A stretch of DNA of 64,000 bases from a virus (lineage: Duplodnaviria > Heunggongvirae > Uroviricota > Caudoviricetes), in IMG/VR virus record IMGVR_UViG_3300028591_000006, positions 64,001 through 128,000 of that record; one strand, given 5' to 3'. The translations under genes were made by a program, and so were the position numbers. Below the pieces are notes generated by a model. The model was given only the letters and a program-made list of their open reading frames with translations. It did no database searches and was not told the origin of the DNA. Shown piece by piece: positions 11,773 to 18,416 of the stretch (its first letter is position 1; every line of letters starts with the position of its first letter).

Positions 11773-12219
11773 TCATTTTGTTTCCTTTAAGAAATCTAAA
11801 GAATCATCAACCATCTTTTGTCTTTCTTCTACAGACATGTCATTCCATCGGGGTTTTCCTTGGATTCCTAATTGAAGGAATATTGCCATAAGAACTTGCT
11901 TTGATATGCTGTTTCCTGATTGTTTATAGAGTTGACTCTTACTGTTCACCTTTGCAGCTTTGTTGAAATCCTCATCCGAGAATCCCATAAGTCTCCATGT
12001 CTCATTCTCAGTTAACTTACGGATAGCATATTTCTTACCCATTTCTTTATCTCCTTCTACGACCGGAAGTATAGCAGTCTTCTTACCTTCCGGGCGTGTT
12101 GTTATAGTCGGACATAATCCGCTCTTATCTACAGTTTTATTAAACGCATTTATCGTATCACCCGGTTTACACTCATTACTGAGTAATGTATCCCAGGCTT
12201 GTTCATAAAATTCATACAT
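11773..12219 (-). CDS. C5-cytosine methyltransferase C-terminal fragment (last TRD-like module plus motifs IX-X)
   Basis: LCPTITTRP module then IRKLT..E.WRLMGF..(IX) and LYKQSGNSI(X); internal AAGGAG-ATG at 12042. Confidence 0.9.
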   Translation of the reverse strand: MYEFYEQAWDTLLSNECKPGDTINAFNKTVDKSGLCPTITTRPEGKKTAILPVVEGDKEMGKKYAIRKLTENETWRLMGFSDEDFNKAAKVNSKSQLYKQSGNSISKQVLMAIFLQLGIQGKPRWNDMSVEERQKMVDDSLDFLKETK

Positions 12220-12427
12220 CTTCTTTAATGATAGAATCTTCCATTTCTTCAAGAATCATTATATCAAGAAACGACATTGTTGTAAGGGTTGGACAGATTT
12301 CAGGTGCTCTTGCTCCCCACGAACGAATATCAGAATATCTTGCCTTTACGGAATGCTTCTCATATCCTTTTCGTATCTGCTTACCGAATTCATTTCTTTC
12401 CTGTCGTAACAGATATATCTTCTTCAT
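12212..12427 (-). CDS. Free-standing TRD-like mini-ORF of split methyltransferase
   Basis: ICPTLTT motif; stop overlaps next start (ATGTATGA). Confidence 0.7.
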   Translation of the reverse strand: MKKIYLLRQERNEFGKQIRKGYEKHSVKARYSDIRSWGARAPEICPTLTTMSFLDIMILEEMEDSIIKEDV

Positions 12428-12572
12428 ATTCCAGTACCATATTATCTTTAGCAGCTGATGTTATGGTATTGCACAATCCGGTATAATTTATTTCGAGTTT
12501 CTGCTCAAACTTTTTATCAGAATTATCTTCCGGAGTTCTGCCACGCATTGCTACTATCAGATATTCTTTCAT
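12390..12572 (-). CDS. Free-standing TRD-like mini-ORF
   Basis: EQKLEIN..GLCNTITSAAKDNMVLE; ATGA overlap with HNH stop. Confidence 0.75.
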   Translation of the reverse strand: MKEYLIVAMRGRTPEDNSDKKFEQKLEINYTGLCNTITSAAKDNMVLEYEEDISVTTGKK

Positions 12573-12998: not shown

Positions 12999-13136
12999 CT
13001 ATGGATGAAGTACAGTCGAAACGGTAACACTCACTGTATCAGAGCTGTACACCCTATCCTGATTATAATATTGCGTTCCACCATTGCTGACCTTTTCACC
13101 AAGTCCGCCAAGCATTACCGGTTCAATATCATTCAT
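12999..13136 (-). CDS. TRD-like mini-ORF ending at TAG, probably prematurely
   Basis: Not in ORF track; MNDIEPVMLGGLGEK...QDRVYSS..VSVTVST VLHP*YLVEIDE; GGTGG SD, ATGAATGA overlap. Confidence 0.65.
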   Translation of the reverse strand: MNDIEPVMLGGLGEKVSNGGTQYYNQDRVYSSDTVSVTVSTVLHP

Positions 13137-13317
13137 GACATTCCACCATTATTTTTGGCTGCAAGTTACCACCTGTACAACAAGGGATGGTAGGACAGAT
13201 ACCCCATTTGGAATAAACACGATTAGCACTTTCAAAGGTATGGTCAATCGTGTGGTCCATACAGGCGAGAATTATAACTTCAGGTGAAACTTCTCTCTCT
13301 AAGCAATTTTCATTCAT
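13129..13317 (-). CDS. TRD-like mini-ORF, in frame, (AG)4 near start
   Basis: ANRVYSKWGICPTIPCCTGGNLQPKIMVE; (AG)4 at 13293-13300. Confidence 0.75.
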   Translation of the reverse strand: MNENCLEREVSPEVIILACMDHTIDHTFESANRVYSKWGICPTIPCCTGGNLQPKIMVECHE

Positions 13318-13618
13318 ATTCACAAACTATTACGCAATTACTATTATCAGCTTCAATACCTTTCCAGTATCTTGCCAAAACCGTATTTGCAATCTCCTTA
13401 TTTATATCAATTATAGAAATATCATTAACACTTAAAAACTTACCGTTCAAACTTCTTCTAATGGTTGCTGGGTAATTACGGCATTTGAGCAATAAGTTCC
13501 CATTCCTTTCCAATCCCTTGCAAGCAAGGTCATCGCTATGTCCGTTTCCTTCAGAAATTTCGTTCCCACTTCCGAAAGATAACAGGTCATTACATTGTTT
13601 GTTTGTAGTATTATTCAA
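13310..13618 (-). CDS. Dual-frame TRD ORF; the 0-frame ends in a TRD-like module
   Basis: C-terminal IDINKEIANTVLARYWKG; TTG start overlapping upstream stop, GGAG SD. Confidence 0.65.
   Translation of the reverse strand: MNNTTNKQCNDLLSFGSGNEISEGNGHSDDLACKGLERNGNLLLKCRNYPATIRRSLNGKFLSVNDISIIDINKEIANTVLARYWKGIEADNSNCVIVCEYE
13447..13614 (-). CDS. Hidden TRD-like module in the +1 frame of ORF 13310-13618
   Basis: Hand translation: ..MTCYLSEVGTKFLKETDIAMTLLARDWKGMGTYCSNAV..*, clearly paralogous to neighbouring TRDs. Confidence 0.7.
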   Translation of the reverse strand: MILQTNNVMTCYLSEVGTKFLKETDIAMTLLARDWKGMGTYCSNAVITQQPLEEV

Positions 13619-13874
13619 TTTCTATAACTCCATTGCTTGGTATCTGTCCGCTACCAAAGCCTTTATAATCCCTTGCAAGAATTGTCATTGCAACATCTAC
13701 ATCTACTTTATAGACTTTTCTGTAGTTACAATAACAACACCATTTCCTATGCTCTGAATCTTGCTTATTCCTCTGTTTTCCCTTGCGATTATACAGTTCG
13801 CAACTTTCAGCAGCTTTGGATTCTTGATACTCAAATCTATCGGAATAATTACTCTCTCTAGCCGTTTCTGTCAT
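13611..13874 (-). CDS. Dual-frame TRD ORF; the 0-frame ends in a TRD-like module
   Basis: C-terminal VDVAMTILARDYKGFGSGQIPSNGVIE; TAATG overlap, AAGGTGG SD. Confidence 0.65.
   Translation of the reverse strand: MTETARESNYSDRFEYQESKAAESCELYNRKGKQRNKQDSEHRKWCCYCNYRKVYKVDVDVAMTILARDYKGFGSGQIPSNGVIEIE
13703..13870 (-). CDS. Hidden TRD-like module in the +1 frame of ORF 13611-13874 (no own start)
   Basis: Hand translation: QKRLERVIIPIDLSIKNPKLLKVANCIIARENRGISKIQSIGNGVV..*. Confidence 0.7.
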   Translation of the reverse strand, partial: QKRLERVIIPIDLSIKNPKLLKVANCIIARENRGISKIQSIGNGVVIVTTEKSIK

Positions 13875-14068
13875 TATTCCACCTTTACAAGCACATCCGC
13901 TATGCCGCCCTTACTTGCTGTAATGGTCTTGCAGATTCCATAGATTGAGAAAACAGAACCGTCATATCCGTCATGCAGACCATATATGTTGCCAAGATAG
14001 ACAGCATTTTCAAAGTCTTTTTCCTGAGTCCTCTCTCTCTGATTATCTGCAACTTCTTTCTTACTCAT
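13874..14068 (-). CDS. First TRD-like mini-ORF, in frame, (AG)5 near start
   Basis: YLGNIYG...GSVFSIYGICKTITASKGG; ATGA overlap with catalytic fragment; (AG)5 at 14031-14040. Confidence 0.75.
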   Translation of the reverse strand: MSKKEVADNQRERTQEKDFENAVYLGNIYGLHDGYDGSVFSIYGICKTITASKGGIADVLVKVE

Positions 14069-14799
14069 TCAAGTTTTCCATCATCAATAAGCTGCTGAAT
14101 AAGTTTCTCAGCTTTCTCCGATTTTATAAAATAAGAATCAGCCACTTCTTCCTGAAGGAAGTCTTTCATAACATACTTCAAAGGAATCTTTTTAGGGAAC
14201 TCAAATTCTATAAAATCTTTTGAAAGAATTGATACACCAAAACAGCGTTCACGATTCTGCGGAATACCAAAGTCCTTGGCATTCAAATCTTCGTAATAAG
14301 TATAATATCCACGAGATTTAAGATAATCGAGCCATTTATTAAGTTCGGGAAGATTGCTCTCAGAATGACATTGCGGAACATTTTCCCAGATACAAATATC
14401 AGGTAACTGTTCATCCGGAAGTTCTGTAAGAAGTCTTTTTACTTCAAAAAGTAAAGAAGATGTTGTTCCGCTACCTTCTTTCATACCTTCCATTTTACCG
14501 GCCACTGAAAGCGATTGGCAGGGCCAAGAATAAAACATCACATATGTATATTTATCCTTATCTACAATTTCCAAGTCAGAACCATGAATCTTAGTTATAT
14601 CAAGAACTGGAAATTCTGTACCATGAATTGCATTATAAGATTTAATTGCAAACTCATCAAACTCAACCAACTTGTAGCGTTCAAAATCTACACCTATAGC
14701 TTTCATAGCCATAGATTGGGAACCCACACCTCCGAATAATTCTAGCAATCTAATTTTCTTTTTGATTTCCGGTTGTGGCAGGTCAAATAAAAAACCCAT
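14065..14799 (-). CDS. dcm: C5-cytosine DNA methyltransferase N-terminal catalytic fragment (motifs I-VIII)
   Basis: LLELFGGVG (I), SWPCQSLSVAG (IV, catalytic PC), IWENV (VI), LNAKDFGIPQNRER (VIII). Confidence 0.95.
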   Translation of the reverse strand: MGFLFDLPQPEIKKKIRLLELFGGVGSQSMAMKAIGVDFERYKLVEFDEFAIKSYNAIHGTEFPVLDITKIHGSDLEIVDKDKYTYVMFYSWPCQSLSVAGKMEGMKEGSGTTSSLLFEVKRLLTELPDEQLPDICIWENVPQCHSESNLPELNKWLDYLKSRGYYTYYEDLNAKDFGIPQNRERCFGVSILSKDFIEFEFPKKIPLKYVMKDFLQEEVADSYFIKSEKAEKLIQQLIDDGKLE

Positions 14800-16401: not shown

Positions 16402-17274
16402 TTATTTTTTGAAAAGTTTCTTAAGGTCTTTTGTATCAGGATATTTCTTAAGGGAACTCTTGATTGCCTTTGTACTTGGAAATCTGCTCTTAAGATTAAC
16501 TGAGCTTGCAAGAGGGAATGTCTTGGATTTATCGGCAAGGTGCAGACTGTTGAACATTGCTGCAATCCAGTCATTTGTAGGATTCTTTTCATAGGCTTCT
16601 TCAATTGCAGAAGTAATCTGCTCACGAAGACCTTTTTCTAGGTCAAGAACTGACTGTGTGAGGTCAGGAGCATTATCACTAGACGTACATAATTGTAAAC
16701 AACGTGGCACGGCAGGCACCGAAACCGTATCTTGCGAAACGGCAAGATATGTATCTTCGTCAACACGTGTGAGTCCATTTCCAATATCAATCAAATCACC
16801 AAATCCACGTGAAGATGTTCCAATCATACCTGTTTTTGCAAGTGAATATATGAGATTGCCCTTTGGAGTATCCATTAAATCAAGGTTGGAAAGTACCAAA
16901 TTATCATCACCAATCCAAAAGTCGTTTATGCGAATCACGACATTTTCAAGCAATACTTCCGAACTATCCCTATGACAATCTTCACCCCAGAAACAATGAT
17001 TATCCAAAGCAGCTTTAATAAAAGGATTTTCACGAATAGATTCCCAAAGTTTCTTACTAAAGACCATATTATTGAGAGTTGGTATGTCATAATATGCAAT
17101 AGGCATATTCTTCCAGGAATAAAGAACACCTGTATTGTCCATTTCTGGTTTGTAACCTTGCAAGATATAATCTTCTTGTTTCATCAAACCAGATTTAATC
17201 AGTTTACTTTTAGTATCAGAAAAAGTCTTAGCAGAAAACCAATTACCTTTAATCCATACATTATGTTGATTCAT
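16402..17274 (-). CDS. gp21: Prohead (capsid maturation) protease, T4 gp21-like
   Basis: PTLNNMVF, WGEDCH, DTPKG.L...L...G.IGTSSRGFG signature; late promoter 17311-17320. Confidence 0.9.
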   Translation of the reverse strand: MNQHNVWIKGNWFSAKTFSDTKSKLIKSGLMKQEDYILQGYKPEMDNTGVLYSWKNMPIAYYDIPTLNNMVFSKKLWESIRENPFIKAALDNHCFWGEDCHRDSSEVLLENVVIRINDFWIGDDNLVLSNLDLMDTPKGNLIYSLAKTGMIGTSSRGFGDLIDIGNGLTRVDEDTYLAVSQDTVSVPAVPRCLQLCTSSDNAPDLTQSVLDLEKGLREQITSAIEEAYEKNPTNDWIAAMFNSLHLADKSKTFPLASSVNLKSRFPSTKAIKSSLKKYPDTKDLKKLFKK

Positions 17275-17321: not shown

Positions 17322-18416
17322 TTATTTCTTCAACATACCTCGAACAAAGTTTTCCCCTGGACATTCTTTAGAACGAACATTCTTCTCACCATTATTCCAA
17401 TACAATAAACCCTTACTATCTTTAGGATGAAATTGTCCTTTCACAAAATTTTCCCCTGGACAATTAACAGCAAAAATATTTATTTCTCCATTTGTCCATC
17501 GCTCACCTTTCAAATCTGGAAATGTCCTGCCATATCTAAATCCTTTAGGACATATTGCTACAAGTATGTCTGATTTTCCATTTGTATACCAATGTTTATG
17601 AGTATGCTCATTTTCGCCTAATCTTCCACGAGTGAATCCATCAGGAGCTTCCTTAGCATGAATTTCAATCTCACCATTATTCCAGTAATACAATCCTGTA
17701 TTAACATCTCTTAATCTTTGCTTAATAGCATCACCTTTCTCACCTTCATACATCTTGCGTTTAATTTCAATTTGCTGTTTCTTTTGTTCTTCGGTCATAG
17801 GCACACCTTTATTCCAAGGTGTATGACCCATTAATGTTTTAGAAATCTTTCGTTTAGTTTCTTCAGATTTTGGACCTTTATTTATACCTTTACAACGTTC
17901 CGACATTTTTCTTTTCTGTTCTTCGGTAAAATGTTTTCCTCTCCATCGGCTACCCATAGCATAACGTTGTTCAGGTGTATATTTCATACCTCTTGTACCA
18001 CTATGCAATGACATTAACTTCTTGGTTTCTTCTGTATGATGTCTTCCTAAGAATGTAGGTCCACCTTCTCCGCCATCAGTCATATTGTATCCATAACATC
18101 TATCGTTCGAATGGTACATCATAATAAAGAACTTTTCCCAATAATCGAAGTCATAAGTTTCCAAGATTACTTCTGCTGTAAAATTCTCATATCCATATTT
18201 ATGAATTGCATTCTTTAACAACGTACCTTCACCAACATTCGATAGTAAATGTCCTCTCTTAAATCTACTGACAATATTCCTAGACTGTCCGATATAGACT
18301 TTGTGATTTATGATGTTTTCAATTTTATAAACACCTGAAATAATAACATTCGGCATTTTCTTAATTTCAAGGATTGAAATGGAATTGGTTAAAATTCTAT
18401 AATTATTATTAGACAT
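17322..18416 (-). CDS. Free-standing GIY-YIG homing endonuclease with NUMOD3 and WxNG..CP repeats
   Basis: ISGVYKIENIINHKVYIGQS..; GYNMTDGGEG; HTEETKK/KSEETKRKIS repeats. Confidence 0.92.
   Translation of the reverse strand: MSNNNYRILTNSISILEIKKMPNVIISGVYKIENIINHKVYIGQSRNIVSRFKRGHLLSNVGEGTLLKNAIHKYGYENFTAEVILETYDFDYWEKFFIMMYHSNDRCYGYNMTDGGEGGPTFLGRHHTEETKKLMSLHSGTRGMKYTPEQRYAMGSRWRGKHFTEEQKRKMSERCKGINKGPKSEETKRKISKTLMGHTPWNKGVPMTEEQKKQQIEIKRKMYEGEKGDAIKQRLRDVNTGLYYWNNGEIEIHAKEAPDGFTRGRLGENEHTHKHWYTNGKSDILVAICPKGFRYGRTFPDLKGERWTNGEINIFAVNCPGENFVKGQFHPKDSKGLLYWNNGEKNVRSKECPGENFVRGMLKK

Follow-up and report, generated by a model that had tools for sequence, protein, structure and literature searches.

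Does a phage cytosine methyltransferase whose target recognition domains (TRDs) lie in separate small genes, several of them behind simple repeats, change its specificity when a repeat gains or loses a unit? The locus that raises this question was found in IMG/VR virus record IMGVR_UViG_3300028591_000006, which is 142,789 bp long and has direct terminal repeats. We analysed bases 64001-128000 of this record; this 64,000-nt stretch is called the window, and coordinates are counted from its first base. The sequencing run that best matches the window is a sheep gut metagenome, and the carrier of the locus is a T4-like rumen phage with a large genome. We consider it probable that the locus is a split, multi-module C5 methyltransferase containing two three-state repeat switches that work by the mechanism proposed below. 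Each switch begins with a start codon and 5-6 further codons, followed by a repeat with a unit length not divisible by three and then by two TRDs in succession (TRD1 and TRD2). Of the three frames behind the repeat, one encodes TRD1, a second passes over TRD1 out of frame and free of stops before entering TRD2, and the third stops immediately. Gain or loss of a single unit shifts the start codon to the next frame, as is seen among near-identical natural variants.

The divided methyltransferase and its repeat tracts

The whole locus lies on the minus strand, in the order catalytic open reading frame (ORF), chain of small ORFs, HNH endonuclease gene, three further small ORFs and an ORF with motifs IX and X. 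The two ORFs at its ends are:

14065-14799, minus strand: catalytic N-terminal ORF (N ORF), 244 amino acids (aa), motifs I-VIII; matches positions 2-207 of 324 of Pfam DNA_methylase (PF00145) with E 1.8e-37; its TGA stop overlaps the ATG of TRD A
11773-12252, minus strand: C-terminal ORF (C ORF), TRD J with motifs IX and X; matches positions 224-322 of 324 of Pfam DNA_methylase with E 1.6e-11

The N ORF contains F-G-G-x-G, S-W-P-C, E-N-V and Q-N-R-E-R, which identify motifs I-VIII of a C5 methyltransferase, while R-K-L-T and G-N-S-I in the C ORF identify motifs IX and X. The C ORF is likely to start at ATG 12217-12219, which overlaps the stop of TRD I. No single chain holds all ten motifs, the N and C ORFs being approximately 1.8 kb apart and in different frames. 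The break falls in the variable region and leaves motifs I-VIII and IX-X on separate chains, as in M.AquI. Tandem TRDs stand between motifs VIII and IX, as in enzymes of the SPR type; here they are not joined covalently in one enzyme chain.

The small ORFs of the chain that follows the catalytic ORF range from 45 to 102 aa. Every small ORF contains a T-[IL] core, typical of C5 methyltransferase TRDs, and the modules, about ten in number, were labelled A to J. Their starts overlap the preceding stop (ATGA or ATGnnTGA), each TRD piece having its own start and stop, and for several of them the end of the preceding module supplies a ribosome-binding site (GGTGGA or GGAG). A search for homologues of the N ORF returned 1820 proteins. 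The best of these are mostly 244-252 aa in length, with identities of 60-80%, which shows that the catalytic ORF is conserved in its short form and is not the product of a recent break. The module types of the locus also occur in one frame between motifs VIII and IX in single-chain relatives (P0073, P0019 and P0082), and the 527-aa single-chain methyltransferase of Dulem virus 39 (PP511791.1) contains the same types, with B-type and H-type modules in frame. This indicates that modules A-J are genuine TRDs. A Pfam search with single modules recognised no family, the HNH gene was the only match when the locus was compared with cultured phages by blastn, and tblastn of TRD D against cultured phages gave no match. 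The locus is a multispecific-type phage C5 cytosine methyltransferase divided into separate genes.

A sequence-only reading of the window had proposed that four simple repeats, each a few codons behind a coupled start, select between alternative TRDs. All four tracts were found where that reading placed them, a recount giving the last as 4.5 units at 13292-13300. On the plus strand they read as five CT units at 14031-14040, four CT units at 13852-13859, three TTGT units at 13595-13606 and 4.5 TC/CT units at 13292-13300. On the coding strand, every tract lies 5-13 codons past a start codon that overlaps the stop of the preceding ORF, which places a repeat with a unit other than a multiple of three within the 5' coding region, as in contingency loci. 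When repeats of such units were counted from 4 dinucleotide or 3 tetranucleotide copies upwards, only 8 were present in the window, and 4 of these fell within 13200-14100, or 1.4% of its length (binomial P = 2.6e-6). The tracts and the frames that they govern are as follows:

13611-13874, minus strand: switch ORF 1, starting at ATG 13872-13874 after the ribosome-binding site AAGGTGGA; in its present state 87 aa, a linker over TRD B followed by TRD C
13852-13859, minus strand: (AG)4 selector of switch 1; open frames behind it of 79 codons (linker and C), 48 codons (B) and 0 codons (TAA at once)
13703-13870, minus strand: hidden TRD B with its stop (coding 13870-13706, stop 13705-13703), one AG out of frame with ATG-13874
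13614-13715, minus strand: TRD C, predicted product of switch 1 in its present state (from the reading frame and the ratio of nonsynonymous to synonymous substitution rates, dN/dS)
13310-13618, minus strand: switch ORF 2, starting at TTG 13616-13618 with GGAG 9 nt upstream; in its present state 102 aa, a linker over TRD D followed by TRD E
13595-13606, minus strand: (ACAA)3 selector of switch 2; open frames behind it of 94 codons (linker and E), 48 codons (D) and 0 codons
13447-13614, minus strand: hidden TRD D with its stop (coding 13614-13450, stop 13449-13447), one ACAA out of frame with TTG-13618
13313-13453, minus strand: TRD E, predicted product of switch 2 in its present state (from the reading frame and dN/dS)
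14031-14040, minus strand: (AG)5 tract; open frames behind it of 51 codons (TRD A), 42 codons (no TRD) and 6 codons
13292-13300, minus strand: (AG)4.5 tract; open frames behind it of 53 codons (TRD F), 6 codons and 3 codons

The sequence-only reading had further claimed that one additional AG would bring ATG-13874 into frame with hidden TRD B, and that loss of one ACAA would bring TTG-13618 into frame with hidden TRD D. Frame arithmetic agrees in both cases, and the first product is seen in a natural contig (L085, described below). Its claim that the present frame stays open over the entire hidden TRD and runs into the next one holds for B into C and for D into E, with the third frame stopping immediately. 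As judged from these frames, the window has both switches in the TRD2 state (C at the first, E at the second), in which B and D would not be made. The role of TRD selector, proposed for all four tracts, stands for those at 13852 and 13595 and was rejected for those at 14031-14040 and 13292-13300, whose alternative frames contain no hidden TRD. No length variants of these last two tracts were seen in L085 or in L002, a more distant relative, and the L085 equivalent of 14031-14040 differs by a substitution with no change in length. They could at most switch A or F ON and OFF; for TRD F nothing more is possible because both other frames stop within 3-6 codons.

The probability that a linker frame is open by chance was estimated by replacing the codons of B and D with synonymous ones drawn according to the codon usage of the phage and scoring the present frame for stops. 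The chance of an open frame was 0.00065 across B and 0.014 across D. As a control, module A, across which the N-ORF frame continues for 54 codons past its TGA, gave a chance of 0.61; this demonstrates that the test discriminates, and the open continuation of the N ORF across TRD A, not being significant, was rejected as a signal. TRD A and hidden TRD B share one frame and are parted only by TAA TGA, the ATG of switch ORF 1 lying inside those stops.

Length variants, related loci and selection

L085 is a contig of 3.15 kb that matches the window at approximately 97% identity in TRDs A-B and F-G, the HNH gene, and TRDs H and I. At the (AG)4 site of the window L085 carries (AG)5, and its ATG reads straight into TRD B and ends at the stop of B. 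The same two-base insertion, at 13851, was found in Logan contigs of an independent bovine-gut run (X3). As (AG)4 and (AG)5 both occur in independent sequences of approximately 97% identity, the AG tract of the window has slipped recently. At switch 2, a contig from another run (X2) leaves the ACAA tract with four further units, giving at least 7 units. L002 and L003, taken from European Nucleotide Archive (ENA) and Joint Genome Institute (JGI) assemblies and with an N ORF 75% identical to that of the window, are identical to each other over 11.9 kb bar one AGCA unit. The unit belongs to a tract directly after the homologous ATG: (AGCA)14.5 in L002 gives the linker with TRD C, and (AGCA)13.5 in L003 gives TRD B. 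The second switch of both carries (ACAA)8 and is in the D state. The tract lengths, which the sequence-only reading needed to vary, thus do so across samples and relatives (L085, X3, X2, and L002 vs L003). The tract-length polymorphism between near-identical genomes that characterises contingency loci was found between the window and L085 or X3, between L002 and L003, and in five of seven IMG/VR pairs.

Other relatives carry longer or different repeats at the same sites. L088 has (AG)6 at switch 1 and (AG)11 at switch 2, where it is in the E state, and L086, also in the E state, has (AACA)5 at the switch 2 site. L006 contains seven different repeats (units of 4, 5, 7 and 8 nt in 4-15 copies), every one of them closely following a TRD mini-ORF start, with (GCAGAGA)7 at the switch 1 site. 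The repeat unit thus differs between relatives, but where the repeat sits and what it does stay the same, as would be expected if selection acts on mutability itself.

A scan of viral contigs with a single protein gave no match, whereas an alignment-based scan of IMG/VR did find relatives: it returned 556 loci, and 80 of these were retrieved. From the catalytic domain to motif IX, repeats occur at 1.42 per kb, compared with 0.24 per kb in the flanks, and nearly all loci have a long repeat of 4-, 5-, 7- or 8-nt units 15-45 nt past the catalytic domain. In simpler relatives, the catalytic ORF itself passes through the repeat and leads to fusion to a B-type TRD, to a stop, or to fusion to a C-type TRD, this last being reached via a stop-free out-of-frame read of the B-type TRD. 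Over 57 IMG/VR loci, the three frames behind the first repeat have median open lengths of 79, 46 and 3 codons. The switch is in the TRD2 state in 24 loci, in the TRD1 state in 17 and OFF in 15. Where pairs of loci are near-identical, 5 of the 7 differ by whole repeat units and by almost nothing else.

Two further kinds of repeat were observed in the relatives. Poly-G tracts of 9-10 occur in the TRD arrays of L007, L016, L019, L022, L025, L050, L067-L069, L073, L080 and L081, and L056 and L062 differ by GG in one such tract; these tracts look like a second switch class within the same loci. A (TTAC)5 or (ACTT)~5 run lies approximately 220-250 nt into the N ORF of many relatives (e.g. L013:6248 and L014:6250), where it codes for Y-L-L-T-Y-S before the P-C motif. 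It was rejected as a switch, since its copy number is the same in all loci seen, and is probably plain coding sequence.

Selection on the modules was assessed by the Nei-Gojobori method, comparing the window with L002, L085, L086 and L088. The dN/dS of the catalytic ORF was 0.11-0.20, and that of the TRDs outside the stacked pairs was similarly low: 0.03-0.12 for TRD A and 0.0-0.34 over TRDs F to J (F 0.19-0.29, G 0-0.29, H 0.15-0.33, I 0.10-0.34). The TRDs of the present states gave 0.17-0.37 (C) and 0.03-0.07 (E, in the well-aligned pairs with L002 and L088). Hidden TRD B gave 0.24-0.48 and hidden TRD D 0.00-0.15, the D protein being 100% identical to that of L002 at a dS of 0.25. By contrast, the linker frames over B and D gave 0.58-1.71, which suggests that they are constrained only to lack stops. 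The hidden frames are therefore not evolving neutrally, contrary to an outcome that would have counted against the sequence-only reading, and these rates indicate purifying selection on both hidden TRDs.

The locus is a mosaic, since the N ORF of L085 is 77% identical to that of the window and its TRD array approximately 97%. Between its HNH gene and TRD H, L085 carries one more TRD mini-ORF (L085:2371-2589), which is missing from the window. In a bovine-gut contig from run X5, position 13300 is joined to 13623 with 201 other letters between, the entire D/E cassette having given way to another module, with breakpoints at module borders. This arrangement suggests that cassettes may be exchanged by recombination alongside repeat slippage. 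The modules and features outside the two switches are:

13874-14068, minus strand: TRD A mini-ORF, 64 aa, in which (AG)5 at 14031-14040 forms codons 10-13 (from reading frames, dN/dS and a docking model)
13129-13323, minus strand: TRD F mini-ORF, with (AG)4.5 at 13292-13300 (from reading frames and dN/dS)
12999-13136, minus strand: TRD G mini-ORF, in which TAG at 12999-13001 (TGG in L085) removes the last 12 residues
12917-12985, minus strand: TRD remnant G2, destroyed by a 79-nt deletion relative to L085
12569-12913, minus strand: HNH homing-endonuclease ORF, 114 aa, inside the TRD array (NUMOD4 and HNH_3 by Pfam)
12390-12572, minus strand: TRD H mini-ORF, 60 aa (from reading frames and dN/dS)
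12212-12427, minus strand: TRD I mini-ORF, 71 aa (from reading frames and dN/dS)

The position of the HNH gene relative to the array is the same in L002, L085 and L086, and the window and L085 copies are shorter than that of L002 (175-185 aa). Elsewhere in the window, a homing endonuclease with GIY-YIG and NUMOD3 adjoins a T4-type prohead protease (Peptidase_S77), the two lying at 17322-18416 and 16402-17274, respectively, on the minus strand. The HNH and GIY-YIG genes together mark this as a phage region rich in free-standing homing endonucleases.

Proposed mechanism and competing explanations

In the mechanism that we propose, unit changes would arise by slipped-strand mispairing in replication. 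At switch 1, (AG)5 would give B, and (AG)3 or (AG)6 would give neither TRD; at switch 2, (ACAA)2 or (ACAA)5 would give D, and (ACAA)4 neither TRD. The TRD mini-protein would then dock in trans, fitting between motif IX of the C subunit and the part of the catalytic subunit around motif VIII, and lend its specificity to the assembled enzyme. The set of methylated motifs on phage DNA would consequently differ among progeny according to switch state, and this may serve as a bet-hedge against host restriction, by systems that attack unmethylated DNA as well as by those directed at methylated DNA. Neighbouring switches may also depend in part on one another, because early termination of translation, in the TRD1 or OFF state, may weaken coupling to the mini-ORF that follows.

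The docking step was modelled with three chains: the N ORF product, residues 66-159 of the C ORF product and TRD A. The docking score was 0.89, compared with 0.00 for the best of 3 controls, where the mark used is reached by 51 of 78 solved complexes and by 2 of 108 mismatched pairs. The partners have a predicted local distance difference test (pLDDT) value of at least 71, and the runs agree in at least 81% of contacts. In the model, TRD A contacts residues 175-184 (the motif VIII QNRER region) and 207-242 of the N subunit as well as residues 74-89 of the C subunit (motif IX). TRD A is thereby placed in the canonical TRD slot, which speaks for compatibility and not for binding as such. A broader proposal, about which our doubts slightly outweigh our belief, is that free TRDs of 5-10 kDa may act as exchangeable trans specificity subunits of a three-part C5 methyltransferase (catalytic subunit, TRD, and IX-X subunit), with each TRD gene or stacked pair behind its own hypermutable repeat. 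A lineage could then explore up to 3^n patterns, and such loci would be to phages what phasevarions are to bacteria and would be common in the viromes of rumen and gut.

Several observations weigh against the switch mechanism and its extension to trans-acting TRDs. TRD J, which belongs to the C subunit, was absent from the docking model, and resemblance to solved single-chain methyltransferases may by itself account for the model's pass; to our knowledge, there is no experimental precedent for a free TRD of 5-10 kDa working in trans. The tracts of the window are very short (4, 3, 5 and 4.5 units), and slippage may be rare. The variants that were seen lie between lineages or samples, and not within one clonal population. 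There is also decay elsewhere in this copy, in the form of the TRD G nonsense codon (TGG to TAG) and the 79-nt TRD deletion, both private with respect to L085. With tracts far shorter than those of its relatives and two private lesions, switching in this copy is probably slow.

The same observations could be taken further, to a locked or decaying copy whose tracts have shrunk below useful mutability, which is fixed at C and E and slowly losing modules, and in which B and D are recent relics. We regard this as a real though less likely possibility. It accounts for tracts of 3-5 units where relatives have 8-17, for the nonsense codon in TRD G and the deletion of its neighbouring TRD, and for the substitution that interrupts an AG tract in L085, interruption being a known stabilising route (compare PMC3411764). 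It fits poorly with the occurrence of both (AG)4 and (AG)5 in sequences of approximately 97% identity from independent samples, with a hidden D protein conserved in full while synonymous sites diverged, and with linker frames that are still intact and free of stops. A stronger form of decay, a pseudogene in which many frameshifts have broken up what was once a single-chain multispecific enzyme and have left the small ORFs and repeats as debris, appears very improbable. The gene is indeed split over more than 10 frame pieces, with real damage to some modules, and single modules have no Pfam match; however, the 244-aa length of the N ORF is kept in hundreds of relatives at 60-80% identity, every piece has a start that overlaps a stop and many have a ribosome-binding site of the GGTGGA type, dN/dS is low for all pieces, and the 79/46/3 frame pattern recurs across 57 loci.

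Two other explanations were weighed. Transcriptional slippage or programmed frameshifting, by which both TRDs would always be made from one DNA state, could explain why the repeats sit exactly at frame junctions with Shine-Dalgarno-like GGTGGA sequences nearby. It is scarcely credible in view of the unit differences seen directly in DNA, which are nearly the sole indels between near-identical genomes, and of the spread of natural loci across all three DNA states; moreover, we know of no case in which units of 4-8 nt serve as slippery sites for ribosomes or polymerases. A programmed shift of the ribosome at the overlaps was rejected separately, as the junctions share no slippery heptamer and are ordinary ATGA or ATGnnTGA stop-start overlaps. 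Reassignment of TGA or TAG as sense codons was likewise rejected: table 11 leaves the neighbouring genes intact, every piece begins at a start codon of its own, and two consecutive stops separate A from B. Assembly or sequencing error at the repeats is a concern in that the contigs are metagenomic and repeats are error-prone in some technologies. Its probability is nevertheless negligible, given that each state was recovered in independent assemblies, that both states give meaningful ORFs and that the differences are of whole units only; short reads are reliable over tracts of 8-12 bases. We retain the two three-state repeat switches as the preferred explanation of the locus.

Relation to known systems

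Phase-variable methyltransferases are known as a bacterial strategy. The locus described here points to the same phase-variation logic in a large family of gut and rumen phages, with 1820 protein homologues and 556 viral-contig matches. If methylation patterns do change with switch state, phage populations would hold a standing diversity of DNA marks, which would bear on escape from restriction-modification and from methylation-dependent restriction, and on host-range dynamics in viromes. Binning of metagenomes on the basis of methylation would also be affected, and TRDs acting in trans, if confirmed, would offer a natural toolkit for programmable cytosine methyltransferases. Full-text literature searches found no paper on repeat-switched phage C5 methyltransferases.

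Three groups of known enzymes share parts of this arrangement. The multispecific C5 methyltransferases of Bacillus phages, M.SPRI, M.Phi3TI, M.Rho11sI and M.H2I (Wilke et al. 1988 and Lange et al. 1991, as listed in PMC8936443), are likewise phage-encoded and have one catalytic core with a row of TRDs between motifs VIII and IX, each expected to have its own target. In those enzymes the TRDs form a fixed set in one chain, whereas in the window they are separate mini-ORFs in different frames, and two TRD pairs are stacked in overlapping frames behind slippery repeats, such that the set would vary. M.AquI and M.EcoHK31I are naturally split C5 methyltransferases; the break in M.AquI lies in the variable region, between I-VIII and IX-X, and fragment complementation is also known (PMC3404938). 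The N and C ORFs of the window are divided at the same place as M.AquI. Unlike these enzymes, which consist of two fixed chains with one specificity, the phage locus would supply up to about ten free TRD chains, dependent on repeat length.

The switches themselves resemble those of bacterial phasevarions, in which repeats occur in Type III mod and Type I hsdM/hsdS genes (PMC7383803), and that of the Helicobacter pylori C5 gene hpyAVIBM, where a difference between (AG)4 and (AG)5 makes the gene a phase-variation candidate (PMC3411764). In all of these, repeats with a unit other than a multiple of three lie in the 5' coding region and a change in length shifts the frame, and the (AG)4/(AG)5 polymorphism at switch 1 is exactly that of hpyAVIBM. 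The bacterial systems switch ON and OFF or truncate the product, in contrast to the phage selector, which would choose between TRD1, TRD2 and off, with several selectors per locus. Three-state selection is possible because one TRD is dual-coded as a stop-free linker. What is new here is the combination, in a phage, of a three-state selector built by TRD/linker dual coding, its repetition within one locus, and free-standing TRD genes.

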